DNA of 64,000 nucleotides from Psammoneis japonica (lineage: Eukaryota): contig QPGO01000068.1 of assembly GCA_008632985.1 (NCBI GenBank), positions 186,001 through 250,000 of the forward strand. Direction: 5' to 3'. The position numbers and the translations under genes were made by a program. Below the pieces are notes generated by a model that had not been told where the DNA came from, ran no database searches, and was given only the letters and a program-made list of their open reading frames with translations. This document shows, piece by piece, positions 3,453 to 29,120 of the stretch (the first letter of the stretch is position 1; every line of letters begins with the position of its first letter).

Positions 3453-3536
3453 GATTGCGGCTTGGCACACTCGTATGGAGCAAGTCTGTCAATAATTAGA
3501 AAACCATTTAAAAGGTACTCTCTAGTCTAGGACAAG

Positions 3537-5037: not shown

Positions 5038-5540
5038 AAGGGCCTGTGATAGAACGAGCAACTGGTTAGTGGTCAGGTTGTGTCGCTAATTCTCAATCTT
5101 GCGCTCGCATCTACCGGTACCGGTACCGTATCTCGCATCTCGCATCGGCACTTTTTCGAACCCGGCGTCTGTGCGACGTAAGCGACCACCGACAGACACG
5201 GCGCTGTTGGCATGTGATTGATCGCACCTCCTGGGGGCATTGACTATTCAGAATGATTGCACAACTAGCCCAGTCACCTTCTTGAAGTATGGTCACGCGA
5301 CAGCGAAAGCTAGGGCCCTAGAGGCCTAGGTACAGTAAGACAATCTCGCTCTCCCGAGAGGCACTGGGAGTTGTGCCAACTTTTCAAGCTATGGATCTAA
5401 TAGTTACATCACTGAGCTTGGTTTGAAGCATCTATTCGGATAGTTAAACACACAGTCGTATCGTTATTGTGTTTCAGTCAGCACAACGTATTGAAAAGAA
5501 TCAACCATGCCATCGCAGACACAACAACGCACTGTTGTTT

Positions 5541-6277: not shown

Positions 6278-6572
6278 AGTGTTGTTGTTTTTGCTGCGAA
6301 GCAAGTGTGGCCGCCGACGCTGCAAATCTTGCGCCAGTACAATTTCATGTCAAATGATCGTATGTAGAGATTATATAGATTATTACGTAGAAATGCGAAC
6401 CGCATTTAACCGATAGCGAGCAGACTGATTCATTCGACTCACTCACGCACTTTTTCGTTGCGTCGGTGGTGCCGGTGCGTCGGCAATCGATCGGCGCAAT
6501 GACGCGAAAAACGTTGCGCCTCATTGCATACTGTACATCACACCCCGCTTACCGTTGCCCCTGTAACGCGCA

Positions 6573-7886: not shown

Positions 7887-8399
7887 GGACTTGTTGTACG
7901 GGATAAGAGTTTCGAGTTACGCATAGCAATGGACGCTCTGTGTACTGCATCGGGACACTCTCTGAATCCGTTCGTATGGTGTCTCCATGAAAACTCCCCA
8001 AGCCAGAGCAGCCCATGCCAATAGTACTGGCGATTGCAACTGGTCGACAAAGGTGAAGCCTACTGACTTAATCGTAAAGCCGCAGTTGGTTGGTTGCCTT
8101 GCAGCTCGAGTCAAATAACGATTATTCGGTATTGAAAGCTATGCGACACTTTGACTTTTACTAGACGTCGCTGGCTCTCTGTTCCCGCCATGGCTGTAAG
8201 GAACACCTGATGATCGTCGTTGATGCAATACGGACCGGTCTTGAAAACCGATTATTGTTGTGTGCGTTGCCAATTTCTGTCATACTTCGGTGACAGTTGC
8301 CGAGCCACCCTTCACCCCTGGCTGCAGCCTGCAGGATATTCCATCCTATTCATGTGAATACTGTCGAATCTTATTGCGCACCGTCAAGTGACGAGGGTC

Positions 8400-9092
8400 A
8401 GTCCGTTTGCCTGTCGTTCACGTCTCTAGCGAGCTCGGCAAATTGGGCCACCGTTTTGACTCGTCCTTGCACTTCCTTCCATCTTTCTTCATCTTTCTCA
8501 CAGATCAACTTTTTGAGAAGGCGCACATCATCTTCGCTGTCCACGAGAAACCAATTTACATTTTCTATGGCAACTGTTTGTCAGTCTTGGTATTTTTCGC
8601 AAGGACCAAGCCCGTCCATCCATAGCTTCCTGCAAGACGCAATCGACAAGTCCAAAACGAACCTTTCTGTCCTCTCTCTGTCTTTAGTTTTGGTGTCGAA
8701 TCAGAAGAAACCTGCCCAAGCACACCGCTATGTATAACATTTGCCAGCGTGCGAACAGCGTGTCCCTCTCGTGAGGACGGGGCTCGAACAGCAAGCGGAT
8801 TTCCTGTCCCATGATGCTGGTAGTCTCCAAAGGCCTTCTTGATAGCCTCAATATCATCATCACTGTAGGCTATTGTCTTTGAGGATCCCTCAAGCTTCCG
8901 ACGTCGGGAGACGCTTGTGCTTTGTTTTCCGCCAAACACACCCCAACATCGCTTCCTTCGGGAGACTCGAGATGCAATGCTATCCTCTCTTTCCATTCTA
9001 TTCCCGGAACTATCAATTGGTGAAAAACTCGATTGTGCTAATGCAGACAATACAACTAGTAGAAAAACCACAGTGACCGCTCTCCTCATCAT
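8400..9092 (-). CDS. Hypothetical secreted protein; 3' part and frame uncertain
   Basis: ORF begins with a clear signal peptide (MMRRAVTVVFLLVVLSALA). A protein-like continuation lies in another frame to ~8400. No family recognised. Confidence 0.3.
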
Positions 9093-9153
9093 CTAAAGAA
9101 CACTCAACGCACCCGCCGCCATTGCGTCGGTCCGGAGTCCGGAGTCGTCGGAA

Positions 9154-11697
9154 TAGGGTGTCCTACCGGTAGCACGCGCGCTGGTTGGTTGGTTGGCTCG
9201 TGGAGGGAATCCTGAGGGAATCCTGAGGGAATTCTCCTCCCGCGTAACTCGGACTTTTCAGTCTTACGGACCAGCCGTAGCCGCTGCATGAAAACATGCC
9301 AAAAAAACCAACCGCAGGGGCTACAGTAAAAATCAGTGCTCCCATTCAGTCCCGGATTTCTCGTTTTTGTCGCTCCAGAAAATGACAAAAAAAGAGCTTC
9401 GAGGTTTTGCCCACTGCCAGCTGCTGTGAGACCCAGGCCTTGAGGTGGTGCGGGTGCAAAAGTGTGTGTTTTCTACAACGCAGAATCTGGCCCACTTTTG
9501 CACCCGTGCCACCCCAAGCAACTTCAAACTGGCACGGCAGGCGCGCTCCGGATTGGCGCACAGACCATCGCCGTGGTGACAACACGGAGAACTTGTCAAA
9601 AAACCGCCGGAGCCGACGATGACATTGATGCGGTGGGTGAGGTGTCCAAACAATCATCGTTTCCAGCCCCATCACTGCAGCAGGTTTGTTGCACTGTCTT
9701 TCGTTTGGGGTTGTAAAGGGGCCATCAGATGACGGCAGTGAGTCGAGCTTCATGCAAACATGCCGTTGCACCCGTTCGTGATGCCATGTTCCATGCAGAT
9801 GATGCATCAACTCACCATTTGCCGGACATTCGGCACCCACTGAGTTAAAGTCCAAGTTTGTAAAAAGGCAAGTAAATTGAAAATCAAAATGGTGCCATCA
9901 ATGTGTCCAAGGCTCGCCAATTGTTGTCTCACTCAACTTTCTTGCCGCTGCAGCCAACTCTTGTTGTCTTTCCTGGCATGAACACATCGACGAATCCAAC
10001 ATCTTCGTCACATCCTCAAACCCATTTCATCAATGGCATTGACCAGACGAGCATTTTTGAAGACTTTGACAAAGCAGCTGCAGTGCGTTCAGCCAAGTGT
10101 TCTTGGGTGGGAGAGAGTCGGGCGGATGAGAGTGAAAATGAAGAATGAAGTTGGCGTGCATTCTAGAAAAAAGCAGCCAAACATGGTTGACAAAACACTC
10201 TGATGCTGTCACTCTATAGAATGACAAACAACAGTGAATGGAGCTCCTCCATGGCTTGTGCACACTCTAGATTGATCGCAAAGACACAAGTGCCAAATCT
10301 GAAAATGGGAAAGTGTGGCATGTGAGTGAGCATTCGTGGATTGCTTCACCCATTTGCAGCATGAAAGAGGTCAGATGCAGTTGCCACGAGGTCAAAGACA
10401 AATTAGAAAGCAGAACATTGCCACAAAATTGGTTTGTGATGATGTTGTCATCTCAATCTCGGTGTTGAGAACGGGTCAATTTCGCTTGATCGTGCAGTGA
10501 GTCACGTGTCTTGAATCCCGCATGACCCACTCGACTCGAAGTTTTTGGAAGTTTTGGCTAGACTTTGACCCCAGCTAGAGCCACAAAATGCACAAGATGT
10601 GAGCATTGTTGGTCTCATGCTCTTTAAACGGATGTCTTGCGAGAATGTGACAGGCACGCATTGTTCATGGCATCTGGCATTTCAAAACAGAGCCAACTTT
10701 TCGTGGAGCACCTTTTTCACACGGGCAAGTGTGAGGGACAATTTTCAGTGATTGGTCAGCAACTGACGTTCACCCCCATTCTGGGCCCCCAAAACGGTCA
10801 TGAAACTTGTGTCTGTGCATTGTCAGTCGATCGAGGTGGGCATTTGGTTAAAAATGGGGGGCCAATTTTTACACGTGGTGTCATGGAGCTGGGGCGGAAA
10901 GCTGCAACATTTGTTGTGTGCACTCAACCTGCTTCGACCCACTTGGTGAATGAAAACATCCAAAGTTTGCATTTGCGCTGGAGAAAGCGAGCCATTTCAG
11001 ATTTGTCGCAGTGCCACCAACAAGCTGCCGGTGCACAACGATCTGCCACCAAACTCGCAAAGCAATGACAGCTGCAATTCGGGCAATCAATTCCTCTGTC
11101 GTCGCAAAGTTGAAATGAAAGACGTCTCAACAGCATGTGGAACGGCGAGGACATCACGTTGAGACAGGGCATCATGCTGATGCCTCCAGTTCGTACGCCG
11201 ACATTCATTGCGATGAATGATGTGGTCATCAGCATCCATCTTCTCGGTGTCGACGCCGAGAATGCCTCAGCAGAGGATGCGGCAGCAAGGTGACAAAAAC
11301 AACCCCGTCAGCTGTGAGTGTCTGATGTGAAATTTTTTTTGTGACTGTCAAGGTGCTGGATTAAAATTTTATTCACAATGCACGTTGTACCTTGAATCAT
11401 GTACATGACGAGAAAAGGTTGTTATGACACTTCTTTAAATGATGTCCATGTTATGTGGTGTAACACATGCCGTGACCTTGACATGTTCTGTGTACAAGAT
11501 AAGACCGGATCGCATTCCACGGGACTTAACGGGACTGAGATGTTTTGACAAAACGGAAGCTCGAATCCACCGATGGAAAATCTTGCTTTGCACGGGCATC
11601 GATCAGATGGTCACACAGCTTCACAAACTCACGAACAGAAACGGAATCTTCGTCCGCGCCGCGCCGAACCAACCAGCGCGCGTGCTTGGACACCCTA
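9154..11697. mobile_element. Degenerate TIR DNA transposon (TAGGG...CCCTA ends; hAT-like termini or TA-flanked)
   Basis: Left TAGGGTGTCC(taccggt)AGCACGCGCGCTGGTTGGTT at 9154-9190 is inverted to right AACCAACCAGCGCGCGTGCT-TGGACACCCTA at 11667-11697. Interior is TpA/CpG-depleted; no 8-bp TSD visible; no recognisable transposase. Confidence 0.7.
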
Positions 11698-11945: not shown

Positions 11946-12194
11946 TTATCTTGTGTAACGATATTCATGGATGAAGAAGGTATTTTAAATTTTATATTTC
12001 GAATTGAAAATTTCATTCAATCGATGACGAAAAATCATGACCACTACAAAATTTTTGGTGAAATCTTCGAAATCAGGGTTATGTTATTGGCTTTTTATCG
12101 GACGACGACTCCTCGCCCACGTTACTCACCATCGCCCCCATCGCAGAGACAGTTTTTGTTTCATTCTTCGGAGTGAGGGTCGCCGTGTATTCAA

Positions 12195-13424
12195 ATGAAA
12201 ACTTTCACTCGAACGATCCCACAAAGGGAAAAGAACGTGCCACGAAGATTTAAGAGGACGAATGGTCTTTTCTGTTCCGCTGCGATAGTGATCCTCCCTT
12301 CTCTAACACTAATTTATCAGGCAGCTCATTCTCGTTTTGCTGCAGACATAATAGAATTTCTAGAACCGGTTGCGGAGCCAGCTGACCCCAAAATAAGATT
12401 TCTTAGTATCTTGGAAGACATGGACGTGAATGTCTCGGCAATCGATGAAGATACTTTGAGACAACTTCCAACGTGGGATAGTGTCGAAGCGCTCTATGGC
12501 CCAAAGCCAATTGTTCACGGATTGGAGGTTTGTCAAGCATACCGCGACAAGGTTGCGGCGGTGGACCGACGTGTTGCTGTGTCGGGATTGTTCAATTCTG
12601 GGACCAACGCCCTCTACATTGTTTTGGAAAAGAACTGTCATATTCCCGAGCGCGTCAAGGAAGTAGGTCCGAGACAACACGGCATGGAGTGGCAGGTGAT
12701 TCTCTTATTTGAATTTCGTTACATGTTCGTCGTACTTGTCTTGGCTGATTCTTTTTTTTTTGTTGAACATAATCACGCTTAGGTGCCGTGGGGCAAACAC
12801 AGTCCTCTCCACTTTCGCTCAAACTTGACGGTACCGCGATACAAGAATCACTCGGATGCAAAGAAAGATCATGTGTTGCCGGTAGTTTCCATTAGGAACC
12901 CGTATGAATGGATGTTGTCCATGTGTCGTAACAGGTACGCGGCTTCTTGGTCACATAACCAGACGCACTGTCCTAATCTTATCGATGGTGAAGGGAACCC
13001 AAATCCGTTAAAGTTTAGAGTTGCGCCGGATACCTTCGTCCACTATGACTCACTGGCGCATTTATGGAATCAGTGGAATCGACAGTACTATGAGTTGTCG
13101 GAATACCCACGCCTCATGGTACGACAAGAAGACCTGATCTTTTATCCAAATGAAACAGTGGAAGCCATATGCACTTGTGCTGGGGGTGTAATGATGTCAC
13201 ACAACGATGGTAATTACACTGAAGGGCACTTTCAATATTTTTTGGGAGAGGCCAAAGACCACGGCAAGGAGGAAGAGCGGACAGATTTCATGAAGGCCTG
13301 GATAAAGTATGGTCAACCAACAAACTGGAGTAAGTTTGAAATTGGTGATACCAAATATGCTCAAGGGGTTCTCGACAAGGAAATTATGGCAACATTTGGC
13401 TATTCTGATCGTCCGCCGCGGTGA
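12195..13424 (+). CDS. Sulfotransferase-like protein, paralog B (intron 12696-12782)
   Basis: GLFNSGTN, WQ|VPWGKH, VSIRNPYEWMLSMCR, VRQEDL; intact spliced frame. Confidence 0.82.
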
Positions 13425-14517
13425 TTCATTGCCCCGTCACGGCTTAGAATGAACGACGTGTGGTTCTCAGTGGCAAACAGATTCAGTCTTAGCTATTTGT
13501 TTGGTCAGATATGCTCAAAGTGTTCGACTGACTTCTTATCCATGGACAATGCATGGTATTCCTTCAGCGATCAGATTTTAGTCGTACCAGGTAGCTATCA
13601 CAATAGCAGCAGTCGTAGCTATCACAATAGCAGCGCTCGAGAGCCACAGAAGTGCATCGTTTTCAATCCTTTTGTTTGAACCGCGTTTGCCTCGATCGCC
13701 TTTATCTTGATGAGATCACCGGAGATGAATTTAATGCGCAAGAGGGCCGCACCGGTGAGGTGAACCCGCCCGGCCGGGATCAATCGGATCGCCCGACGGT
13801 GCGGTCATCACTGCAGCCTCAGGTCACCGACTTTAGAATGGGCAAGATGACGAAATGGTGACGACTCTTGGTCCGTTGAGAATGGCACCACCAGCTCAAC
13901 TGGGTTTGCCCCTGCAGAACTTCCATTTCCAAAAATGAGACATGGAACCACCACCACTGATGACTTGTGTCTCAACACGCCAGTGGCATTCAGCACTGTG
14001 ATCAATGGCATCATCAGAAGCAAACCATTGCTCAACATGGAGACATTTTCCATTTTTGAAGGTTGGAGGGAAGTGAGCAATGGTTGGAAAGAGGTTTGAC
14101 AGATGTGGAGTTGTCAGAAAGTGGTTTGTCATGTCAACCGGTGGGCACAGCGACCAATGGAGGGAAGGAGGGAGGGAGGGAGATGTTGAGAACTCCAACT
14201 GGACAAAGACCAGTGTGACTCTTCTTGGTGGTTTGCAGCTTCCAAAGGGCTCAGCTTCTTTTTTTTTTTGTGAATTCCTTCATGAAGCAATGTGGCCATT
14301 GGGGGACATTGCCAACCCCAACAACCTCAAAACTGTGGCCGTCCTTTTAAGCTGAAAAAAGATTGCAAATTTCAAGCTTCAACATTGCACTGGGCTCTCT
14401 GCAGTCACATGTTCTCTGCCTGGGTGTGAGCATCTTTTGACAGCCCCAAGCCAACAAAATCTCAGGGGGGGGGGGGGAAGCACATGCAAAAAAAGAAGGG
14501 CAAGAAAAGGCAGCAAA

Positions 14518-14964
14518 TGCAGCATGCATGCAGACAAAAGGTTGTTTTTGTCACGCCCTTTGTGACATTTAAAGGCTGCAACACGTCGCCGTGATGCACC
14601 AACTCTTGTTGGCAGCTGTGTGTTGCACTCCTCCCCATGTGTCACGCGTCCACACGGCTCTTTGCCAATGTGTGCTGACACTGCACGGTTTTGGCGGAAC
14701 AGTGTGGGCACGTACGAAGGAACGTGCAGAACTGCACAGAGTTTTGCGCGTTCGACAGTGATCAACGTTGCTGCAGACAACTCCCACTCAGGGTTTCGAA
14801 CCCCTGGCCTCCTGCCCAATGGTTGCGATGAACCACTCCGCTGTGAATTCACAGTGCAGCATGCACGCAGACAAAAGGTCATTTTTGTCACGCCCTTTGT
14901 GACATTTAAAGGCTGCAACACGTGCCGTGATGCATTGACTCTTGTCGGCAGCTGTGTGTTGCAC
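14518..14964 (+). repeat. ~110-bp direct repeat (14518-14628 and 14855-14964)
   Basis: Shared cagacaaaagg..tttttgtcacgccctttgtgacatttaaaggctgcaacacgt...ggcagctgtgtgttgcac; most differences are at TG/CA/CG positions. Confidence 0.9.
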
Positions 14965-15901
14965 AAAGCCCCCCCCCCCTGGGATCGCTGCAATGATTTG
15001 CTGGAGCAACAGATGGCGGCACTTTGCCTTGCAATCATGTTGTTTCTTGGAGCACATTGGTTTTGGTGACTCACATTGTGGCCCACATTTTGCGCGGGGT
15101 CTTTTGACAACTTGTTCTGCACCTTTCAACCTTCTGTGCTTAAAACAACTGTTCTTTGAGCACCAACAAGCAGGGCATGCCCATCAAATGTGTGCAAGGT
15201 GGCTGCAGTTGGAACATTTGCAAAACTCTGCTTGACAATGTCAGGTTGCACCACGTGTGTGTCACGAAACATTTTGCATTTGCGCAGCCTGGACAAACAT
15301 TGTGGCAAATGTGCAGAAAGTCTTGACATGTCTGCATTGTTGCTGGGTGACATCCTGGCTCCTGTGCATCAGCGAGTTGGGGCGCATGCCAAGAAATGGC
15401 AAGTTTGTGCTGTGCCTGCATTTCTCAAGCATCTTCTGATGGCACAGCTTCCAAAAATGCAGTGCTGGCTGACCAGCTGCACCTTGCTTTCCAGGTTGTC
15501 AACCCCATCTACAGTGCACCAGGTGGGCCACAACTGAGTGCTGCGTGTCATTCTTGTTTTTGCTGGCAACATCATGGTCATCTTCCAAAAAAGTTTGTTC
15601 TTGTTTTTGCTTCTCTTTTTTTCTTCACACCAAATGTCTTTGGTGGTCAGCTGCCAAGATTTTTTGTTCTCTTTTCTGGCCTCTGGCGTGTCCCATTCTG
15701 CCCTTCTGTTTGTCATGCTGGGAGCAAAACTTGCCACACTCAACATCTTTTGAAAAAGAGATCATCATTCAAGTGCGTCTCTGCTTCCTGGAAAGCAGAA
15801 AAAAGAAATCCCAGGCAAAGCAGCTGCCACATTCTGGGGATGTTGCAACTTCTTTGTTGGGTGTCAAAAGCTCAAGACACACAATTGCACCACTCTGTGC
15901 A

Positions 15902-16395
15902 AACCCCACTTTGCAAATCAGTTGACACAGATTGATGCTTGGAAAGCAGCCCATTTCTGGTTTCTTGATGTCCTGCACATCACAAGATGCATTTCCACTG
16001 CCCCTCTTTGGTGGGTTCATGATGGCTTTTTTGTTTTTCTGAAGCACCGCCCACATTTGCTCCTCCTGTGCCCATCTTTTGCACAACAAAAGAGCAGTCT
16101 TGCAGCTCTTTAATTTGGGAGAGCAAAAAATGAGGTGTGGTTGGGGCATGAAGACCATTCTGTGAACCCCACTCTGCAAATTAGTTGGTGCAAATTGGCA
16201 CTTGGAAAGCAATGCATCTCTGTCTTCAGCAGCCTGCACATCACAAAATGCACCACCGCTGCCCTTCTTTGGTGGGTTCACATTGGCTCTCTGTTGTTAA
16301 AGCAGCACATTGACTCCTCCCATGCCCACATTTTGCACAACAGAAGAGGGGTGGTCTTGCAACTCTTCAACTCATGAGAGCAAAAAATGAAGTGC
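15902..16395 (+). repeat. Diverged tandem repeat, unit ~260 bp
   Basis: aaccccact.tgcaaat.agttg...cctgcacatcacaa.atgca...ctttggtgggttca...gagagcaaaaaatga.gtg occurs twice. Confidence 0.85.
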
Positions 16396-19076
16396 AGTGA
16401 GTTGCAGCATGAACAAACTAAAAGTGACTTCTTCCAGCCCACTTCTCTTCTTTTCTGAGCCTTTCTCATGAGTTGCCAGATGATGCTCTGTGTGAGCAGC
16501 AGAGCTGTCCCAACCCCCCCCTCCCCAAGATTTTGTTCTTCTTTTTGTTTGAATCTGTGGCATTGATTTGTGAGAAACAAAGTGTTGCACTTTCAAGTGT
16601 GTCATTTGCTCTGCTGTGCTCAGTCTGCACTTGTCAATGCTCAATTCTTTCAGCCCCCCCCCCCCAAATGCCTGTCTTGCACTCCCCAAATTGTGTTCAA
16701 GGCAACTGGAGCATCATTTTGTTGGGAGGAAACTTTCAGAAAAAAGGTTCCTTTGCCTGCTTTTCTGACAACCACAACAACCACAGAGTTGCCTTGCTTT
16801 TGTGCATTTGCCAAGCCAGCATGGCTGTGCTGTTTAGCTGACACCAAGAAACTGCTGACTCAAGAACAAAACCATCACAAAAATGTGCCTGGTGACAAAG
16901 ATTTTGTCACAGAAGACACCATCAATGTGCAAGCCATGCAGGCAGCTGTTGACTTGCCCAGCTGTGCAGAACCTTCCTCAGGCCAGATCCTTCCTCATGC
17001 TCAACAGCCAGAGCCAGCAGGGGGGGGGGGGGGCATTTCAAAGTCACCAGCACTGGGCTGTGGGACATTGTGTGCTGCTGCACCAAGATGAAAGATGTGC
17101 TTGACTTTCAATTTGCTGCCAAACAACTGGATGCTCCACCCAGCACCATGAGTTTCCCAACACCCCTGACATCCTTTTTGAAGAGCTTGCTGCATCTGCT
17201 CAAACTTTTGGCTGGAGCAAGGAGGTTCTGAGCACTGACATTGACAAAGCAAGGCTCCTCCTCTTCAAAAAGCAGAAACCAAAGGCACACGCCTGTTGAA
17301 TGTGGTCAAATCTCAGCTGAGTCACAGCTTGCATGGTTTCAGCTTTCAGGCATCTGCCTCCATGTCAAGATGCCAGGGGTGTTCACCAAAGCAGCTGCCA
17401 ACTCTTGTCTGTCTTGTCCAGGCTCCAGAGGGCACCACTCTGGGGATGAACCTCCAAGGTTGTCACAAACTGTTGACAACAATGAGCATTTTGTGAAAGG
17501 CAGAAGTTGACTCCAGTGCTGCAATGTCTGTCACCTGGGACTGGGTCAGCAGCCTGGGTGCTCACATGACCATTGTTGAGATGGTCAGATGACTGGTGCT
17601 GGGGCATTCCAAAATCATGCCAAAGCTGCAGAAAAATGCTTGGCACTCATGGCTGCTTGCTCCAGCTCCAACCTGTTGAACAATGCACTCAAAACACCCA
17701 TCCCACAGGTGTTGATGAAAACTTTGCAACTGCTTCCATGCTAAAATGCACAAGAGCACCAGCCATGAAAATGGACCTGATGCTGACCCTTGGGCACCCA
17801 CACCACCACATCTGAGGCAGAGAACATCATGCACCAGATCCTTGCAGAGTTGAAAAGTGGGTGGCTTTTGCTGAGGAGCCACAAACCATTGTCACACTTT
17901 GAGCCAAGACAGAAGCTTTTTGCAAGGCCAAAAACATGTGACAAGTGGTGATCATCAAAAGCAATGCCTCAGCTTGCCTCGCGTTCCTTCCAAGAGCAAC
18001 CAAGCCAAAGGAAAGGGTTCTGACAATCACAGCAAGCACATCAGAAGTTCCAGATCCTGTCAAATGGATGCAAGAAGCCTTTTTTCTATGGCAAACATGA
18101 CACCCAGCTCCAGAAAGGATTGACAGTCTCATTTGCCAAGGCTGTTGATTGTCATGTGCACAAGCGCACAGCAAGTGCCATGAGCACTGGGCTTCTCAGA
18201 GGACAAAACCATGTTGGGAGCTGCTGTGCTCTCTGGGAAGAGCGCACAGCATGCCAAGTGCTGCCTTGTGGCTGCTCTGTTGCATGTGCTCCACTCTTGC
18301 AAAGTGTCTTTTGTGCATTGACAGAGCTGCGGCAACTCCTCTTCCCATGATGCTAAAACTCGCTGGCGAAATTTTGCTCGCACAGCCAACACAGCTGAGT
18401 TTTGCAGCACACCCCAATTGCCAGTGTGTGACCACTTTTTCTCCAAACCCAAAGACTCTCATTGTGCAGCTGAAAAACACATTGTGCCGTGCCCCTTCTT
18501 TGCCACTGGAAATGAGAGGTGGTGCAACATCAAGCCAAGTGGCGTGTTTGTGGCCTTGCTTGTTGATTGGTGCCTGGATGAAGACTTCTGTGGGGCAACC
18601 AGGACGGACAAGTGTGTCACAGCAACAGATCATCCTTCCAGGTTGCCCATTGGCACTGCCGATCAACAAACCGGCATCTTTACTAAACAGCTGTGACTGC
18701 CAAAGGAGCTCTTCTTTTAAGCTCCGTCGTTTGCCATTCGGCTGACGTCCATGTGTCATGTTGTGAGTTGTGAGGCATGTATGTAGGGCCCTACTGTACC
18801 GTATGTGACCACCACAATGAAAATGTCAAATGTCAGATCGACCGTCGCCCATAATTGTTGGTCCTATAGCCCCCTAATTGTTCAAGACATCTCGAACATT
18901 TATTGGGAAATCCAATACCGCTTCATTAATAGCTCACTTCTCAACATTCCGACGTTGTCCCCGTTTAGTAGAGTAATCACTAATGCATGAGCGCTGCTAC
19001 TAACTGAACTCAAAGAGTCAGTTTTGTTTCATATTTGGAGTGAGGGGTGAGGGTCGCGGTGCATTCAAAACTCGAG

Positions 19077-20306
19077 ATGAAAACTTTCACTAGAAAGATC
19101 CCACAAAGGGAAAAGCACGTGCTACGAAGATTTGAGAGGAAGAATGGTCTTCTGTGTTCCGCCGCGATAATGATCCTCCCTTCTCTTGCACTGCTTTATC
19201 AGGCAGCTTATTCTAGTCTCGCTGTAGACAAGATAGAATTCTTAGAACCGTTTACGGAGCACGCTGAACTCCAAAAAAGATTTCTCAGCATCTTGGAAGA
19301 CATGGACGTGAATGTTTCGGATATCGATGACGACACGTTGAGACAACTTCCAACGCGGGGTAGCGTCGAAGCGCTCTACGGCCCAAAGCCAATTGTTCAC
19401 GGATTGGAGGTTTGCCAAGCATACCGCGACAAGGTTCCGGCAGCAGACCGACGTGTTGCTGTGTCAGGATTGTTCAATTCTGGAACCAACGCCCTTTACA
19501 TTGTTTTGGAAAAGAACTGTCATATTCCCGAGCGCATCAAGGAAGTAGGTCCGAGAGAACACGGCATGGAGTGGCAGGTGATTCTCTTATTTGAATTTCG
19601 CGACATGTTCGTCGTATTTGACTTGGCTGATTGTTTCTTTTTTGTTACACATAATCACACATAGGTGCCGTGGGGCAAACACAATCCTCTCCACTTTCGT
19701 TCAAACTTTACGATACCGCAATACAAGAATAGCTCGGATGCGAAGAAAGATCATGTGTTGCCGATCGTTTCCATTAGGAACCCGTATGAATGGATGCTGT
19801 CCATGTGTCGTCACAGGTACGCGACATTTTGGTCGCATAGTGAGAGTCAATGTCCCAATCTTATCGATAATGAAGGGAACCCAAATCCGTTAACGTTTAG
19901 AGTTGCACCGGATACCTTCGTCCACTACGACTCGCTGGCGCATTTATGGAATCAGTGGAATCGACAATACTATGAGTGGTCGGATTACCCACGCCTCATG
20001 GTACGACAAGAAGACCTGATTTTTTATCCAAAGGAAACAGTGGAAGCCATATGCACTTGTGCTGGGGGTGTGATGATGCCAAACAACAGGGGTAATATCA
20101 CTGAAGGGCACTTTCAATATTTTTTGGGAGAAGCCAAAGACCATGGCAAGGAGGAAGAACAGACAGATCTCATGAAGGCCTGGATAAAGTATGGAAAACC
20201 AACAAACTGGAGTAAGTTTGAAATTGGTGATATCGAATATGCCCAAAGGGTTCTCGATAAGGAAATTATGGCAACGTTTGGCTTTTCTGTTCCACCGCCG
20301 CGGTGA
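19077..20306 (+). CDS. Sulfotransferase-like protein, paralog C (intron 19578-19664)
   Basis: Close paralog of B with the same motifs and intron position. Confidence 0.82.
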
Positions 20307-20639
20307 TTTATTGCCCCGCCATGGCTGAGAATGAACGACGTGTGGTTCTCAGTGGCAAACAGATTCAGTCTTAGCTATTTGTTTGGTCAGATGTGCTCAA
20401 ATAGTTCGACTGACTTCTTATCCATGGACAAAAGCTTGGCATTCCTTCAGCGCTTAGATTTAGTCATAGCTATCACAACAGTAGCGCTCGAGAGTATTAT
20501 AAACATCGTTTACACGCTTCTTTTTCGAACCTCGTTTTGCCTCGATTGCTTTTGTTTTGACGAGATCACAGCAGACCAACACAGACGAAGTCAAAGCTCA
20601 AGAAGGCCGCACCTGGTGAGGAGAACCCGACCGGTGTCA

Positions 20640-22767
20640 GCGCCGGACGAGAGCTTGGGGGACTCCTACGATGCGTTTTGATTTGGATCTGTGTCGCTGT
20701 CCACAGATGGAACAACTCTGGCTCGTATGACGACGGCATCAGAAGTGCCAGCAACGCTGGAACAGAGATCCATGCAAGTGAAACAATGCGTGGTCGAAGC
20801 CAGCTCGTACTGTCATTTTGTCTGCTGTTCTTGAATGTCTCAAAAGCTTCTTCCAGTCCACCAAGAAGGAATTGCAAAAGTCCTGGTGGACACTGTTGTT
20901 CGGAGCAGCCAAGGCAACAGGACCGCTGATGAAATTGTGCATCTGCACATGAATCACATGGATGTTGGTCAAACTGTGTGCACTGGACCAACAAGCAAAA
21001 TGAACCCTGATCCAACAGCTGAAGGGATCACTGCCTGACTGTGCTGCAACAGATTGCAGCAGGAATGATCATGGACATGAGAAAAAGAAGCCAGATTGCA
21101 AAAAAGTTTGCACAAGGGCGGGTTGCAGTGACAAGACATGTTTTCTTACTTTGGCAAGCATTCACAACAATGATGTCAATTGGCTGGACTAGATGAGTGG
21201 CAAGAGGTTGTTTCAAGATGTCAACAAGTGTGACTCACATTGTTTCTTGCCACTCTTCTGCACCTCCTTTGAACAATGGATGGGAGGGAGGACAGCAGCC
21301 ACCTTTTTGGAGTGAAACATTTTGCAGTGTCACCCTCCGCCAGCTGCACTGCAAAAAAATTGTTTTTTGTTCTCGTGAATCACTCTTGGTGGCACCAAAA
21401 ACTCATCTTGTTTTTTTTTTCTGTGTCAGCACCCAAACACTGTTCAAAAGGGGAACAAGGCACAGGACCAGATGCAAAGAGCCTGTCTGGAAGCAACACA
21501 CAAGTGGGACATGCATGACCCCATCATCAAATGGCAGCATGGCAAAAAACACCATTTTTGCTTGTTTGTGCTGAAAAGCCACTGCAGCTTCCTCCCACAC
21601 CCACGCTGCATTTCATCATCATTCAACAGGAGTGTGCATGCTGGTGGTGCTGGCTAACTGGAGGTGTGCCTGTTGAGCAGCAGCACATGGACAAGAAAAC
21701 AGAAAACACAAATCAACACACAGCAGAGCTGAGAAGAACATCTCAATCTTTCACAACTTGCTCCTGACACTTGCACTGCCAGTTTCTTCCATGGCAGCAG
21801 TGCACATCATGCATCAGAAGTGTGCGAGAGATGAGCTGTGTGGCAGCTCATGCCTGGTTGCAAAACACAAAAGGAGTGCACAAAGGCAGGCAAAAGAGGC
21901 ACCACTGTCTTTTGGGGTGGCAATTGTGTTGAAAAAAAAAAAAGAGTGCTGAGATTGAAAGCCACTGTGAATGTGATGGGTGCTCACAATGGGGGTTGTC
22001 AGATGCAAGGATTTCAAATGTCAGGTGTTGACACATGCGTGGCTGTCAAAACTTTTGCACACTTGCACAAGAGAGGCAGACAAGGAGACACAGAATTGAC
22101 CCAAAACACCACTTCATGGATGGAGTGAACAAAGCACACAAAACCTTCAGCTGTTTTGCGCGGCTGTCAAAAAACATCTGCACACTTGCACTGACAACAA
22201 GAGGTGCAAAATCTGCTCAAAGCACCGTGCATTGTAAAACACACAAACAAAGCAAAACATTTAGAAGCTGATTTCATGCACAACTGAGGGAACATTTCAC
22301 CTGCATGTTTTCAATGCCAGGCTTGTCGCGCCAAACTTTCAACATGCCACACGAAGGTGTGCCCCTCCACACTGACCTGCTGCCGTCACCAATGAGGGTG
22401 TCTGTGAGGAGATCTCAACCTGCCACTTTAATGATTGTGACCCAAAAACACCTGCTGCCAGTGAGCCACTCTTGTTGAGCCTTGCTGTTGGGTGCTTGGT
22501 GCACAAAAAGCTTTTTGCATTTGTCATGACGAGGAAAAGGGTTTCCTCAAGACATTTGACAACAAGAACAACAGCTGCGCCACTCAGATCAATGCATCTG
22601 ATTGGGCAGCTGCTCTTTGCCACTGTCTCTACTTTGCTGTTTCTGTGATGTACAGCAGAGTGGTGTGATTCTCGCCCTGCTGTTGTTTCTCACAGCACAG
22701 TTCATGATGTCTCCAGGCAGGGGTGTCGAGGGAGATCCCAGAGGTTTTGGCACATGTGCTGGTTGCT
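20640..22767. mobile_element. Degenerate TpA/CpG-depleted repeat sequence, probably an older element interrupted by the 22768-28885 element and resuming ~28894-29050
   Basis: Same dinucleotide signature as the other islands; no recognisable protein. Confidence 0.5.
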
Positions 22768-23197
22768 CATCTGGGACACCAACAATCCAGGTGTCGCACC
22801 AGCCATCAAGATTTCTTGAAATAAAACCCGACATTTTCTCCCTTTAATTTGTCAAGTCAGCTTTTCTGAAATGTTCAACATCAAACATCCATGTTCCTCA
22901 ATTTGGCTGTTTGCCCCCCCCCATCCGACAAGCCTCATGTGCACATTTAATGCCATTTTAATTTCTGGATTGTGTGTCAATCAACTTTCTGGATCAAAAT
23001 CGTTGCCTGCATCCGTCAATCTAGATTCTAATTGTTTTCTCAATTTTCTCTCCCTGCCCATTCCATCCTTCCTTCCCATCCATCCGCACGTTGCATCTCC
23101 ATGTTTCTGCCCTCACCACATCCCCAAGTGATTGTTGCTGCACCCACTCTTTCCTTTCAATTCTCTTCTCAACTCCTTCATCTGTGTGCACAGGCCA

Positions 23198-24300
23198 TGT
23201 CATCTGATGGTCTTGTTTGTCCATGGTGCAAACGAACCGGTTTCTTTTCCGAACGTGGCCTCAGCAGGCACATCACAACTAACTGCCTCCGTTCTGCCAT
23301 TTCCACCAAGTCTTTCAGTTGTCCTTGTTGCGGACAACGTGGGTTTGACTCTGAAAACAACGTGCAGCATCACCTGTCTTGGCACTGCACCGCAGCATCT
23401 GGTCTCCATCCCCCATTGACACAGTTGTGCCACACAACCCAATTGTCTTCTTCATCCGGCAGAACATCTCTTTCCTCTCATCCTCTGGATTCTGCCTCCG
23501 TCGGCTCCCTTGGATCCAACACCAACAAACCCAAATGTCCCCATTGCCGTGTTCCCTTTTCCAACATCACCCTTCATCTACAGAAGTGCTTGCCCTGCCG
23601 TGAAAAGGAGGAAATGTCCCTTTGTCTGCATGCCGCATCTTCCACTGCCGCCCACACACTTCCCCCTCCAGACGACGACCATGATGAATCACTGGACGAC
23701 CATGATGATCCTGCTGGGTTTGGTTTCTCCGACGACGAACCCCCTCCTCCCCTCCCCGAAGTCCTTTGGAATCCAGCTCCATCTCCTCCCACACCAACGG
23801 ACAATTCTTCTCCAGCTTGTCCTCCCTCTGCCAGAAGTGGACTGCGCCCACCCTCCATCAGACGCTCTGGTTGATTGCGTTCAGCCGCCAATGCTGACCG
23901 CGTTCATTTGCCCAATGTGTGGGAGAACAACACAGCCTCAATTTGGTGTCAAGGCTGTTTCCTGTGCCAAACGGGGCCAGATGCACCGGCGGGGGACAAT
24001 GCCCAGATGGATCATTGGTCAACACTGCAGGTTGAGTGGGGTGGAATGTCATCGGGAGAGAAGTGCGATGTGTCGGATGGAAAAGAGATTCATTGGTTCC
24101 ATTTTGGTGATGTGGCCCAACAGGTGAGGGACTGGGTGTGATTCTTTGGGGTGGGATCATTTTGAGGTTGTTGTTTTGCAAAGGGAATGACAAGGCCACG
24201 GAAGACAAGAAATGGAGTCACCCAAATGATGTCTGTTCGCTGCTCAACATGAGTTGATCAGTGACTTGGACAAGATTCGAGGAGAATGTGGTTTGCTGTG
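23198..24300 (+). pseudogene. Degenerate TE ORF with three C2H2/C2HC zinc-finger-like motifs and a Pro/Asp-rich linker
   Basis: CPWC..FSERGLSRH..C, CPCCGQRGF..QHHL..HC, CPHC..F..LHLQKC; downstream frames broken. Confidence 0.55.
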
Positions 24301-24353
24301 GGAGATGCACTTTATGTCACGACACTGTACAGGCTGGCATCAAGTGCACAAGC

Positions 24354-24880
24354 AAAAAAGTGGCGCCAAAGGCATTCATCACCAGACACATGTGTCAACA
24401 AAAAACTGATGCCAAATTCTTCTGTTGACAAATGTGTTTGACAACAGAAAAAGTGATGCCGAATTGCTTTGTTAACAAACAGTTGTGGCAACAAAAAAGT
24501 GACACCAAATCACTCTGTTGACAGATGTGTGCATTGCCAAAAAAGCAACAGTTTGTTTGTGGTGCGGAATGTGCGGTGGATGGAAGCTTTTGCTTTGTGT
24601 CTGCTGCTGTGGTGATGTGAAAATATCTCACATCATCACTGACAGGATTGTGAGCAACAAAATTGTTTTCTGTGCTTTTGAGATAGCTGGGATGACCCAT
24701 TTGGTGAGATCATTCAGCAAACAGGATCGACGAAGATCACATCACACGTGACCATTTACGAAAAAAACGTCTGTGGTGCACCCGACAGATGGACTGCCAT
24801 TGTCAAAACATCACACGGGACTGTTTACGAAAAAAACACCCGTGGTGCACACAACAGACAGACTGCCATTGGCAACACAT
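24354..24880 (+). repeat. Internal tandem repeats: ~46-bp unit x3-4 (24354-24530) and ~70-bp unit x2 (24740-24880)
   Basis: Repeated aaaaagtga.gcc.aat...tgttgaca and cacacg.gac..tttacgaaaaaaac....gtggtgcac....acaga..gactgccattg. Confidence 0.75.
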
Positions 24881-24913
24881 GTTTGGCGAGAAAGCCATTT
24901 TCGTTGGAAAGCA

Positions 24914-25774
24914 ATGGGTGCAGACTTTTGCTGGATTGGGTCTGTTCCACTGAAAGAAAAAGACTGGGTGCCATTTGATTTGGCAGAACAGGCATTTTCA
25001 GAGAATGGCGCGGAAGTGTTCTGTGAACGGATGCCGGAAATTTGCCGTTGGCCGACAACATCATGCCAGAAACATGGCAAGTTACTGACACACCCGGGCA
25101 AAATGAAATCTCATGTTGTCAAGAGTGAGAAGGCGGGGTCCAAAGAAAGAGAGCACCAGGAAAGAAAAAAAGGCCACTTGCAAAAATTCAAAACACCACC
25201 ACCCCTGCTCAACAAGATGACAACACTTGCAAACAAGGCACCAAGTGGGAAGGGAGAAAAGGAAGGACACTGTTTTGTTGGTGAGTTTGCCATCAACAAA
25301 AAGGAAAAGGCAGAAGGTGTTGGGTTGGCAGAAAAAATGTTGGAGTTAATTCCTGGCTTTCCCCTGGCAGGTGATTCAAGCAGAAAGATGTCCCGACACA
25401 CAGCAGCAAACGCTCCTGCTTCAAGTTCAAGATCTAACTTCTGGTCAAAGGGGGAAATTCATCACGATTACGTGGAAACAAAATTGTCACCTGGTGACAA
25501 AATTTTCACCATGTTTCTGTTCCTCGATGACACAATGGAGCACAATGGTGCAGTGGAGACATGGCCGGACAGTTGTGAGGCAACATTGAATGAGAAGGAA
25601 CGCGAAAGACACTTGGTCAGGTTGGGTTTGGAAAAACAATCGCTGGTTGGAGAAGCAGGCACTGCATTTGTTTTTGATGCAAGAATGTTGCACCGAGCTT
25701 TGCCTGACAAAACGAATTCGGATCGAAGGAACATGGCATGTCCAGTCCATAATTTTGACGTGGCAAGCATGTGA
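24914..25774 (+). pseudogene. PhyH-like (phytanoyl-CoA dioxygenase family) 2OG-Fe(II) oxygenase carried inside the transposon; mutated
   Basis: HHD (HxD), TMFLFLDD...NGAVETWPDS, GTAFVFDARMLHRA, T.SDRR match the PhyH double-stranded beta-helix signature. Confidence 0.7.
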
Positions 25775-25899
25775 ACATGGCAAGAGTGTGAACAAGCATG
25801 TGTTGGAATGCAAAACTGGCAAAGTGGCAAGTTAACACAGGCGCAAAGCAGGTTTGTGTAAAGGGCCAACCAACAATGCATTGCTTGCATGGACGACAG

Positions 25900-26376
25900 T
25901 CACATCACAAACAAAGTGGAATTGCAAAGTTGCCCACTTTTGGCAGGCTTGAATTTACGTTTGATGTCAGACCCTGGGTCGTTCCCAGTGGAATGCCCAG
26001 TCTCCACGGCATCGTCTCTTTTCTTGGTGCACTTGTGAAGCAGGTGCCCATCGACACCGCCTCCCCACAACAGATCGTCTGGACAGGCAGGAACAAAGAA
26101 TGCTTCGTGCCTCCATTTGTGCGCACAAACACAAAACATCACATCCAGTGAAATGACAATGGTGCCTTCAGGACACTTGTTGGACAGTGTCTCCTTGAGT
26201 TGGTTCTGTGTCGCGTTGTTGTCAAAAAGCATTCGCCCATTGCAGTTGTTGAAGAAAATCTTTAAGTTGTTCAGACGGTGCAACCGACACACAGCATCGT
26301 CTTCGGAGAGGAAGCCCTGATTGATCAGGGTCGGAAAGCGACTGGCACTGTTTTGTGCCATGTGGCATTGCACCAC
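25900..26376 (-). pseudogene. Unknown degenerate TE-borne ORF
   Basis: 158-codon open frame with protein-like composition inside the TIR element; no family recognised. Confidence 0.25.
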
Positions 26377-27358
26377 TGAGAGCCAAGATCATGACGGGGA
26401 CGGTGGAACTCGATGCTGCAGGCATTGCAGGCAGGAACAAGCAGACGACAGGCAATCGCAAAACCGCCAACACCACCACCAACGTCGAGGAAATTAAAAC
26501 GGCTTCGAATTTGTGCCGCAAAGAGAGCGGGGTTACAAATGACCTTGGCGGAGAAGGCAAAGCTTGCCGTGCCGCCGTGTGATTCCACACCACCACCAGC
26601 AAAACGACCAATTTGATCATCAATTGGCGGCATGTGATTGTGACAGAGGGAACACGTGTTCCCATGACGGGAACGACTCACGACAACCACATCTTAGAGA
26701 CAACAACACACTTCAGTGGACATTAAAGTGGACTGGAAAATTTGGGCAACAGAGAGAGCAGTTGGACAAACATGGTGTCAGGGAAGCAGAGGGAATGACC
26801 CATTAAGACAGGGACAACAAATGGGAGGTTTGACACGACTTGACACACCAAATGAAGCAGATGTTGCATCCAGAAGGAAGCGCAATGCATGCATCAACAT
26901 GAGGAGATACAACACATTGTTTGGCATTGATTCAAATGATGTGGCAATCTTCATTGGTGCATTGGATTGGCTGACAAAGGTGCACAATTCAAAACAGTGA
27001 AACGTTGACAGAAATGCAAACATGGGGTTGGGGATGAGCACTCAAAAATGATGCAAAGACCTGTTTGAATCGAGAGAGGACACGCGAGCAACGACAAAAC
27101 CGAGAAAATCACATGCAAAAGTGCGTTCTTTTCACAACTCACCTTTCACAAAGCGACAGGAAAGGACGGAAGTTCCAAATGAGAGGAAGCCATTGGGAAG
27201 GTAAAAAAAAAAATGGAGGATGCGGTTCTCACAGGAGCAACGGAGGGAGGAAGTGTGACTTCCAGTGGCAAGTGAGATTGAGAAAGGACATGACAAAGAG
27301 TTGCTGATGAACTGACATGGTCATTGGATTGATCTGTGTGGTGTCACATGAAGTCACC

Positions 27359-28468
27359 ATGAGTCCTGCGGTGGCGGCCTTGTTGCATGCACAAAGAAAC
27401 GAACATGGGGAACTGAACAGATTCCAGCATGCAGGTGGCGATTCAAGTTCGGCGGTGACTCCCACAGAGGGATGTCTTGTGTTGGATCGTGCACCAGCGG
27501 TGGGCAAGAAATTGACAGCATCGATGTTGACTGAGGTCATCAATGAGAGTGTTTGGCCATGTCGCAAGTTCACAATCTTCGATCATGAACTCGCCGTGGG
27601 AGGAGATCACATGAAATTGGTTCTGCAGGAGTTGAGGAGCATGGCGTCTTCACCGGAGAAGTTCTGGGAAGAATGCAAAGAGGTGTTCAGGACCAAACTC
27701 AACCGAAAGAGGAACAATGTGCAGGACAACATTGGGAGGAGAATGACAGGCAAGCAGATGTGTGCGTGCCGGTGATTGTGTTGGAGGCGATTGTCCAACG
27801 GGATGAGTGTCTCTTCCTTTGCCATTGTCTGTGCAGTTGCTGCTTTAGAGGGATCGCTGGTGGCTTACGAAGACTTGATAAAGGGAAGAAATGACAAGAA
27901 CACATGCGCGTGGTTCTTGGAAACTGTGGTGCCGATGGTGGCGGGACAAGCGCAGTTTGGTGGAAGCACAACCGACATGCTTCAGGAATGGCTTTCGGTT
28001 TCGTTGGAGGCGTTTGCTCTGCCAGTGTACTTGAACTGCTGCAACAAGGTAAAGGACATGGCAGAGAAATTGGAAAAGGAAGAAAATGTTGCAAGGAGAA
28101 GAAAGCCAACTGTGAACGATGCTGCTCCTGCAAAGTGCACAGCGCAGGCAGCGGGGGAATCGGCAAAGAGGAACCAAGGATGGAGCAAGGAGGGGATCAA
28201 GAAGCACAATGATCTGTGTCAGTGGGTGGTGAAAGACAGAGAGAACAACCAGGGATTCGGTGCATGGTTCAAGGACAGAAGGCGAGAGAAGACAAACTTG
28301 TCTCAGGAGGAAAACAAGAAACGCAAAAGAGAGGAAAAAAGAAAGGAGAGAGAGGAAGGATGGGCGGCGCCAATGGGAGAGGACCTGCCATTGCAGGCGG
28401 TGGATGCAGGCAATGGAGCGGTAGCAAATGCCGCAATGGCCACCAACCAAACTGGTGTGCAAACGTAA
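27359..28468 (+). pseudogene. TE accessory protein, two exons (mutated intron 27750-27836)
   Basis: ORFs 27317-27775 and 27776-28468 join in phase across an 87-nt intron. Motifs KFWEE..F..KLNRKRNNV, SLEAFAL..Y.N, GWSKEGIKK(H)NDL and a charged coiled-coil tail. Confidence 0.6.
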
Positions 28469-29120
28469 TTTGAAACAAACAATAAAATCCAGACAAGTGA
28501 AAATTAAAAAAAACATTGTGCGATGCGGTTTAGATGCAATGGCGTGTGGCAATTGGGAATTTGGATTTGAAAACGGCATGGCAAAGAGATAAAATGTAGG
28601 ACGAGTTGGTAGAAAAGGAGGGTGGATTACAAGCAGCAACATTTGTGTTAAAAGAACGAGAAACCCCAAATGTCAATTGGGGCGCAGGTCTGCATTGTGT
28701 GAAAGGAATGACCACACTTAAAAGTGAGAAGCGATTTGGGTTTTAGAAGCTTATAAACTTGTGTAGTTCTCATATTATATTTAAGGAGAGAATTGGCTTG
28801 TAAGTTGACAACAATCTGGCATTAAAGTCAAGAAATGCCCAGATTGTGGCAGACGGTCAGACCCAGATTGTTGGCGTCCCAGATGCTGGTTGCACCACGA
28901 AACAACCATTTTATGTCCCGCTGCTTTCACAAGGCACTCCATTGACATTCTGACCAGTGGTTTGAGAATGTGTTTGCATGAAAAGCATGGAGAAGTCACT
29001 CTCAGAGTTGTTGACAATGTTTGCTCCTGTGCATGGGGAAGAGGACAGAGCCAGGTTTCCTCTCTATTGCTTGTAGGCTACTGCACCTTATCGAACTTCG
29101 TCGTCGCCGGCCGCACAGCC

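Follow-up and report, generated by a model that had tools for sequence, protein, structure and literature searches.

The stretch of DNA analysed here, a 64,000-nt window covering positions 186,001-250,000 of contig QPGO01000068.1 (forward strand) from the diatom Psammoneis japonica, contains several blocks that have lost almost all of their TpA dinucleotides. The block flagged first, B1, lies between the two copies of a tandemly duplicated gene. The few TpA steps that survive in B1 and in the other TpA-poor blocks tend to have a pyrimidine on their 5′ side and a purine on their 3′ side (YTAR; Y, pyrimidine; R, purine), and we argue below that the probable cause is a mutator directed at TpA in mobile DNA. 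B1 and its immediate surroundings comprise the following features:

12073..13788, + strand: upstream copy of a tandemly duplicated gene of no known family, with 76 TpA and 97 CpG
13789..18775, no strand assigned: B1, a TpA- and CpG-depleted non-coding stretch between the tandem gene copies, single-copy now
15898..16407, + strand: old internal tandem duplication in B1 (copies 15898-16151 and 16161-16407), with conversion in place
18941..20651, + strand: downstream copy of the tandemly duplicated gene, matching 12073-13788, with 74 TpA and 93 CpG

The TpA content is normal in both gene copies that bracket B1. The edges of the block are sharp (~100 bp), with TpA density shifting between 13732 and 13834 at one end and between 18718 and 18780 at the other. 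Sequencing depth was measured with contigs from one public sequencing run at a likeness of at least 80%, where the single-copy level is ~60-68; over 15004-18338 we observed a depth of 61-68, equal to that of the single-copy flanks. Pfam gave no match to any of the 40 six-frame open reading frames (ORFs) of B1, and terminal repeats and a target duplication, sought for B1 taken as a whole, were not found. The block does contain inverted-repeat pairs with poly-G/poly-C tips, and we read it as a nest of old, decayed mobile-element fragments. Within 13801-18775 the ratio of observed to expected dinucleotides (O/E) is 0.06 for TA and 0.22-0.23 for CG, against 1.79 for TG and 1.75 for CA, and the 18 TpA present compare with an expectation of ~322 x 0.55. 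The surplus of TG and CA (~480) about equals the deficit of TA and CG (~540), and the gain is strand-symmetric, with 553 TG and 546 CA in B1.

A preliminary description of this DNA had reported that 14 of about 18 surviving TpA were YTAR, the exceptions being GTAC, CTAC, CTAT and TTAC. Our recount gave exactly 18 TpA and 14 YTAR (TTAA 7, CTAA 4, TTAG 3), and each of the four exceptions was found once. Two of the TTAA, at 14570 and 14907, lie within a duplicated 111-bp segment, which reduces the independent count to 13 of 17. The chance level, put earlier at about a quarter, is bracketed at 17-32% by four null models: base composition gives 25%, the flanks of every pyrimidine-purine (YR) step in the blocks 22.7%, a first-order flank model 32.3% and the TpA in the rest of the window 17.4%. 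Over these nulls P ranges from 4e-8 to 1e-4 for 14/18, and is at most 2.4e-4 for 13/17. The accompanying arguments, that A is not lost in general and that neither GC-biased gene conversion nor a mutational signature of the WA type (W, A or T) explains the pattern, also stand: AA and TT steps are over-represented (O/E 1.36 and 1.29 in 13801-18775), and GC content is 0.49 inside the block and ~0.48 outside it.

Four further TpA-poor blocks are found in the window, one of which forms the greater part of a transposon:

9400..11400, no strand assigned: block B0, a multi-copy element (TA O/E 0.14, CG O/E 0.70; 19 TpA, 9 of them YTAR)
20600..22767, no strand assigned: block B2a (TA O/E 0.08, CG O/E 0.28; 11 TpA, 4 of them YTAR)
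22768..28885, + strand: putative Mutator-like DNA transposon of 6,118 bp, with terminal inverted repeats and a target duplication
22768..28450, within the transposon: block B2b (TA O/E 0.10, CG O/E 0.54)
24752..25771, + strand: relic cargo gene, coding for a Cys-rich motif at the N-terminus and a PhyH-type dioxygenase dependent on 2-oxoglutarate and iron (2OG-Fe(II)) (Pfam PhyH, 1.1e-5)
28451..28860, no strand assigned: TpA-normal segment of 410 bp inside the transposon (20 TpA, O/E 0.54)
36560..38780, no strand assigned: block B3 (TA O/E 0.08, CG O/E 0.17; 9 TpA, 4 of them YTAR)

The region of B0 (9001-11001) reaches a depth of 1,400-3,950, and TG and CA are again balanced in 9400-11400 (~202 and ~200). 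B2a is single-copy, with a depth of ~66 over 20340-22340, and a self-comparison recoded to purines and pyrimidines detected no homology of B1 with B2a. B3 is pyrimidine-rich and of low complexity, with CTCA-type tandem repeats, and gave no Pfam match. Apart from the PhyH relic and three weak matches, Pfam found nothing in 128 six-frame ORFs from the blocks, and in particular no domain of a transposase, reverse transcriptase or virus.

We read 22768-28885 as a probable Mutator-like DNA transposon because of its terminal repeats, its target duplication and a relative of its cargo gene that stands beside Mutator-like/MULE (Mutator-like element) transposases in a metagenome locus, L011. The 25-nt terminal inverted repeats (22768-22792 and 28861-28885) match at 22 of 25 positions, and they differ only by one CA/CG and one CA/TG double change. 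The 9-bp target duplication (22759-22767 and 28886-28894) matches at 8 of 9 positions. MULEs characteristically have terminal inverted repeats, a target duplication of 9-11 bp and a Mutator-type transposase. A depth of 1,271-5,006 over 22341-29000 corresponds to ~20-80 copies of the transposon. No transposase was recognisable by Pfam among the six-frame ORFs of this copy. In the product of the cargo gene tyrosine makes up 0.3% of residues. An exhaustive HMMER search found 86 relatives of this relic (cluster representatives; best 8.7e-17), a word-indexed protein search with it returned none, and in the Atlas 29 of its 30 matches were PhyH. At 24-30% identity these relatives are too distant for polarising codon changes. 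We also observed that a ~250-aa family combining the Cys-rich motif with a PhyH dioxygenase travels with mobile DNA, with members at 24752-25771 and in the metagenome loci L009 (9713-10507) and L011 (6241-6990). In L011 the dioxygenase gene sits between a Mutator-like and a MULE transposase gene, and a SET-domain gene adjoins.

Taken together, the five blocks (17,060 bp) retain 94 TpA against ~682 expected, and 47 of the 94 are YTAR. With B1 set aside, the share is 33 of 76 (P = 3.5e-4, 5e-5, 0.028 and 1e-7 under the four nulls). We fitted the losses with a Poisson model in which the base preceding the mutated T on its 5′ side determines a loss term for each strand. The loss exponents were 2.36±0.26 for A, 1.34±0.15 for G, 0.96±0.15 for C and 0.07±0.09 for T. 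Context dependence was favoured over uniform depletion with a likelihood ratio (LR) of 95.6 (P=1e-20) for all blocks and of 61.2 (P=3e-13) without B1. In this larger sample, then, the NTAN words are not equally depleted, even when the block that drew attention to them is left out. Distinguishing all four 5′ bases described the window better than a division into purines and pyrimidines (LR 36.7, 2 degrees of freedom, P=1e-8), and the rule in the window is graded rather than strictly YTAR, with loss falling in the order A > G ≥ C >> T for the 5′ base. CTA is also eroded and TTAA is practically immune; across the five blocks TTAA is undepleted (25 against 22.9 expected), and ATAT occurs once against 45 expected. 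The products point the same way. In a test that leans on the background proxy, a model in which the flank of the mutated base decides between CA and TG was better than a 50:50 split by 8.4 log-likelihood units and better than the opposite assignment by 44.9.

Scanning metagenomes with the dioxygenase alignment gave 26 loci, and five TpA-poor stretches were found among them: L009, L012, L021, L025 and L014:5001-9000. Their TA O/E is 0.17-0.35, with TG and CA at ~1.3-1.4 and CG at ~0.75. None of these loci matches the window in a DNA comparison. L012 and L025 are 94-97% identical copies of parts of L009 and were left out of the survivor count. The non-redundant set of L009, L021 and L014:5001-9000 (18,354 bp) retains 249 TpA, of which 126 are YTAR and 11 RTAY, where 25.3% would be expected (P=1e-17). 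Each locus is significant alone, with YTAR at 83 of 153 TpA in L009, 10 of 19 in L021 and 33 of 77 in L014. Here the loss exponents (A 1.12, G 1.66, C 0.01, T 0.24) give a clean split between purines and pyrimidines.

The near-identical copies allowed TpA loss to be followed directly. L009 and L012 (95-97% identical over 4,982 columns) differ by 166 transitions and 35 transversions, and 148 of the 166 transitions fall at TA/CG-type steps. At YR steps where the two copies agree, we counted 411 CA, 379 TG, 204 CG and 55 TA; where they differ, the pairs are CA/TG 34, CA/TA 33, TA/TG 29, CA/CG 10 and CG/TG 8, so that CpG is involved in only 18 of the differences. Sorted by context, the sites kept as TpA in both copies, lost in one, or resolved as CA in one and TG in the other number 36, 15 and 2 for YTAR, 17, 32 and 17 for the mixed contexts, and 1, 11 and 12 for RTAY (chi-squared 36.1, P=1.5e-8). 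Loss in at least one copy has thus affected 17 of 53 YTAR, 49 of 66 mixed and 23 of 24 RTAY sites. At the mixed sites RTAR became CA 15 times and TG 5 times, and YTAY became TG 11 times and CA once; the direction expected from RTA>RCA and TAY>TGY was obeyed at 26 of 32 sites (P=5e-4). In 1.69 kb shared by three copies, 11 TpA steps and 66 CpG steps are unchanged in all, and at sites showing three states the third state is TA in 7 of 8. Base-by-base parsimony over the three copies was rejected because parallel, context-determined hits and CA/TG doubles mimic CA>TA and CA>CG changes; dinucleotide patterns and polarity from protein conservation were used in its place. As a separate observation, the few CpG differences between L009 and L012 cluster in R-CG-Y, with 10 of 36 compared with 4 of 166 in all other contexts (Fisher P=6e-6), and so repeat the flank pattern of TpA. 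This bias is absent from the window blocks, and it could reflect a second hit on RCAY/RTGY products or the action of the same agent on CpG.

The direction of change was read from a protein. L009 carries two long ORFs without a Pfam domain, of 1,259 aa (404-4180) and 1,031 aa (4704-7796). The first has 13 metagenome relatives at 47-90% identity, a conserved family likewise lacking any Pfam domain; a mobile element or virus of marine protists, as yet undescribed, may have it as its core protein. Tyrosine makes up 0.7% of the L009 protein and 1.4-3.1% of its relatives. It departs from them at 35 of 521 conserved columns, and the commonest change is Tyr>Cys, which occurs 7 times, always with a TGY codon; Tyr>His occurs once, where the preceding base is A. 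The reverse changes were not seen in this ORF (His>Tyr 0/15, Cys>Tyr 0/17), and the five Tyr codons that follow a pyrimidine all became TGY. As conserved tyrosines go to Cys or His and never back, the direction is TA>TG/CA. By the genetic code such changes are unable to make an in-frame stop, and genes are consequently disabled by missense changes (Tyr>Cys, Tyr>His and others); long ORFs are found in dead elements because TA loss removes TAA and TAG and creates no in-frame stop.

The old duplication inside B1 shows the same conversion in the diatom itself. Its two copies have 75% nucleotide identity, which rises to 91% after purine/pyrimidine recoding, and they differ over 248 columns by 46 transitions and 16 transversions. 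CA in one copy faces TG in the other at 9 of 51 shared YR steps, and the remaining adjacent double transitions come to 7 altogether. In the control, the gene duplicate, CA faces TG at 2 of 351 YR steps, and there are 141 transitions and 97 transversions. The CA/TG double differences arise where an ancestral TA or CG was resolved independently in each copy. This implies that TA and CG still made up about a third of the YR steps, a normal proportion, at the time of the duplication.

The context rule is thus seen in four independent sets and directly in the copy comparisons. Its trinucleotide targets, TAY and RTA, which had been proposed from B1 alone, recur in the other window blocks, the metagenome loci, the element copies and the protein-polarised changes. 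We consider it very probable that the flanking rule is real. In the blocks, transitions from TpA to CpA or TpG have taken place in the DNA itself and on both strands. The T>C change is favoured after a purine (RTA>RCA), or, read on the other strand, A>G before a pyrimidine (TAY>TGY). RTAY is a target on two strands and is the first to vanish; YTAR is a poor target on both and remains; RTAR and YTAY present one target strand each and are resolved in the predicted direction. TpA conversion is confined to the blocks of mobile DNA and is faster than CpG decay. The two losses are separate because the multi-copy elements combine a TA O/E of 0.10-0.14 with a CG O/E of 0.54-0.70, and the single-copy remains are low in both. 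CpG loss is the slower process, and most simply represents the decay of methylated cytosine; the CG O/E of 0.17-0.28 in the old blocks is as such decay would leave it, for the CpG part of the scar only.

TpA-directed hypermutation of foreign DNA has been described once so far, in a 2026 preprint on one chlorarachniophyte, Bigelowiella natans, where it affects integrated DNA of nucleocytoplasmic large DNA viruses (NCLDVs) and virophages (Mettrop et al., April 2026, bioRxiv 10.64898/2026.01.13.699255). This preprint was the only one that a search of the literature for the TpA phenomenon in diatoms or other stramenopiles returned. In its mutation accumulation experiment two integrated viral regions received 231 of the 302 new mutations. 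Of these 231, 230 changed A to G or T to C, in every case at TpA, and the rate was ~6e-7 per site per generation, in some lines only. Domains of DDE endonucleases and reverse transcriptases were over-represented in the TpA-poor coding sequences there, and the authors propose an ADAT2-like DNA adenine deaminase. The preprint's main text gives no flanking-base rule; the words 'flank', 'context', 'trinucleotide' and 'diatom' occur 0 times in it.

The TpA scar described here belongs with the hypermutation reported from B. natans: transitions dominate, they are located at TpA (directly in the L009/L012 copies, by composition in the window), and they are confined to mobile DNA. In both cases the only changes are TpA>TpG/CpA transitions, foreign or mobile DNA is affected, single-copy DNA included, while the remainder of the genome is normal, the long-term trace is a depletion of TpA with a gain of CpA and TpG, and genes for transposases and reverse transcriptases are among the depleted sequences. 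Unlike in B. natans, a rhizarian, the host here is a diatom and the targets are transposon remains, and the rate is inferred here whereas it was measured there in accumulation lines. The depletion is also deeper here, with an O/E of 0.06-0.14 against 0.45 in the NCLDV region of B. natans.

Fungal repeat-induced point mutation (RIP) offers a second comparison. RIP changes C to T at CpA, creates TpA and stop codons, and needs duplicated DNA. Like RIP, the process seen here makes targeted transitions in mobile DNA, in a dinucleotide context and on both strands, and leaves a sharp-edged compositional scar. Unlike RIP, it loses TpA and gains CpA and TpG. It also differs from RIP in its relation to copy number, as 15004-18338 of B1 and B2a stand at single-copy depth (at a likeness of at least 80%; copies may have existed in the past). 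Host deaminases of the APOBEC3 and ADAR type similarly mutate invading nucleic acid with a preference for neighbouring bases; in contrast to the present case, APOBEC enzymes change C in single-stranded DNA, and ADAR acts on RNA and leaves a strand-asymmetric trace, whereas a DNA transposon is hit here and the TG and CA gains in B1 are symmetric.

By analogy with B. natans, the process would be a targeted hypermutation of silenced or foreign DNA, and we put the probability that a targeted mutator lies behind the flanking rule at roughly 70%. Its executor would presumably be an enzyme. The foremost candidate, which we put forward tentatively, is a DNA adenine deaminase with T-A-Y specificity: the A>I chemistry of TadA and ADAT2-ADAT3 would yield exactly TA>TG. 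The natural tRNA target, A34, stands after U33, and U-A-C is what bacterial TadA recognises; specificity for T-A-Y would accordingly be in keeping with a TadA-like enzyme.

Other explanations were weighed against a targeted mutator. We consider it unlikely that no dedicated enzyme is involved and that altered replication or repair in silent chromatin, for example weak mismatch repair, has let an ordinary T>C bias at A-T-A-like contexts accumulate. T>C changes at ApT contexts are a common endogenous signature in other eukaryotes, and the oldest blocks are also depleted in CpG, a mark of long-silenced DNA. Yet TpA is required almost absolutely, with no loss of AA, AT or TT steps, and the block edges are sharp. 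TpA loss also outpaces CpG loss, both in the steps left identical in three copies (11 against 66) and in the young multi-copy elements, which have reached a TA O/E of 0.10-0.14 while CG is at 0.54-0.70; and the rate in B. natans was raised ~1000-fold, in some lines only, according to the preprint. A further explanation, by thymine chemistry, in which a dioxygenase oxidises T in R-T-A to 5-hydroxymethyl- or 5-formyluracil that mispairs with G and gives T>C, has the attraction that the affected transposon family carries a 2OG-Fe(II) dioxygenase, and the outcomes in duplex DNA fit A>G and opposite-strand T>C equally. On this reading it is the modified T whose 5′ neighbour the flanking rule describes. 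5-Formyluracil does mispair with G, and the hydroxymethyluracil of dinoflagellates favours TpA. The cargo enzyme is, however, of the PhyH type and not of the TET/JBP type, and a relic in this copy; self-mutation would bring the element no gain; and we know of no modified base here. We regard this explanation as distinctly improbable.

Selection on the elements is another way to lose a word, if they shun RTAY because a nuclease or binding factor of the host recognises it, much as restriction sites are avoided by phages. The most depleted word is indeed palindromic, and some TpA-poor elements have long intact ORFs, such as the two of L009. Long ORFs are expected anyway from TA loss, and a change of conserved tyrosines to cysteine is damage rather than adaptation. 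Moreover, the strongest depletion lies in single-copy, non-coding remains, and copies of one element have reached CA or TG independently at shared sites, which leaves selection a very improbable explanation. A fossil of RNA editing, in which A-to-I edited transcripts of the elements were copied back into DNA, would draw on the preference of ADAR-type editing for a U before the edited A, as discussed in the B. natans preprint. Against it stand the strand symmetry of the gains in B1 and in 9400-11400, the nature of the best-defined element, a DNA transposon that has both terminal inverted repeats and a target duplication, and the preferred 3′ base, which is a pyrimidine; we give this origin hardly any credence. 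Finally, the YTAR excess might be an accident of small numbers, or the YTAR steps might be newly made TpA rather than survivors. B1, the extreme block, offers just 18 sites, and some TpA in the oldest blocks must be back-mutations. The excess was nonetheless replicated in the 76 other TpA of the window and the 249 of unrelated loci, TpA newly arising from CA or TG would have Y..R flanks in only ~23% of cases, and the loss rates taken directly from copies differ by context class, so that the chance of such an accident is negligible.

Several observations weigh against a targeted mutator as we describe it, or limit its form. B1 is an outlier among the five TpA-poor blocks, with 14 of 18 YTAR against 33 of 76 in the others (Fisher P=0.017), and its 78% overstates the typical effect, which is ~45-50%. 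The ancestral state behind the expected counts is approximated by the remainder of the window, most of it coding, and this is the chief weak point of the numbers from the Poisson fit. The additive two-strand fit is rough (GTAG occurs once against 5.3 fitted, GTAC 8 times against 4.5), in its purine/pyrimidine form the rule does not hold in detail for the window, GTAC being kept about as well as CTAG, and the CA:TG product test is favourable in 4 of 6 contexts, a 50:50 split fitting better in the other 2. The evidence from the window is compositional, save for a 250-bp duplication and a single terminal-repeat pair. The 410-bp TpA-normal piece (28451-28860) sits within the TpA-poor transposon; a contig of another copy omits 28489-28727, and the piece may have been inserted later or represent an end region that is protected. 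For the deaminase in particular, amphioxus BjADAT2 deaminates both A and C in DNA, with contexts in E. coli of GAA for A and TCG for C (PMC10354150), so the one natural ADAT2 shown in that report to deaminate A in DNA prefers GAA and not TAY.

The TpA-loss scar is new for a diatom, a member of a major phytoplankton group, and for ordinary DNA transposons rather than viruses, and here it can approach complete erasure of TpA. The trinucleotide target RTA/TAY provides a concrete specificity for testing candidate enzymes, deaminases or others, and the YTAR/TTAA residue together with RCA/TGY products is a simple genomic signature for surveys of other eukaryotes. It is possible, though we would put it below even odds, that a genome-defence mutator with T-A-Y (= R-T-A) specificity is common to distant marine protists, among them rhizarians, diatoms and the hosts of the metagenome elements. 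If so, it would be a mirror image of fungal RIP that erases TpA from transposons and integrated viruses and, being unable to make stop codons, disables genes through missense changes only, and the YTAR residue, above all TTAA, would serve for finding the system and its enzyme across eukaryote genomes. Viral contigs scanned with the dioxygenase alignment gave a single weak match, in a locus with normal TpA.

B1 also contains a repeat of very high copy number:

14459..14985, no strand assigned: high-copy insertion in B1, with G-run/C-run inverted termini and 1.3 copies of a 337-bp unit

Depth in the bin 14337-15003 reaches 63,955, against ~62 alongside. The insertion is CpG-rich, yet has only 3 TpA. 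Its inverted repeat (I5) is 94% complementary, its direct repeats (D1/D8) lie 336-337 bp apart, and its inverted termini end in runs of G13 and C11. One contig links 14841 back to 14517, so the 337-bp unit seems to be tandemly arrayed elsewhere. A tRNA-like segment lies in the unit at 14623-14848 on the minus strand, although ARAGORN called no tRNA in 14459-14985. A metagenome scan with a 24-nt word from this repeat returned no match. All five G/C homopolymer runs of at least 9 bases in the window (14465-14477, 14969-14979, 16654-16665, 17020-17033 and 22914-22922) fall within TpA-poor blocks, and several of them tip inverted-repeat pairs, pointing to a single family of small elements that carry terminal repeats and end in poly-G.

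The gene that brackets B1 belongs to a set of four Pfam-less paralogues within 24 kb (6826-7935, 12073-13788, 18941-20651 and 29726-30371), the tandem pair being spaced 6.9 kb apart. The long ORFs of the window encode ordinary eukaryotic proteins, including a MINDY deubiquitinase, a 905-aa pentatricopeptide repeat (PPR) protein, a sigma-70-type factor and a thiamine pyrophosphate (TPP) enzyme, among others. Relatives of the sigma factor reach at most 48% identity over most of its length, and those that bear an organism name all come from diatoms (Chaetoceros, Skeletonema, Thalassiosira, Ditylum and Helicotheca). A 369-aa ORF at 33234-34343 encodes an RNase H-like RVT_3 domain, has normal TpA and is followed by a 290-bp tandem duplication (34260-34796); this ORF may be a domesticated or recent piece of a retroelement that the TpA process has left untouched.

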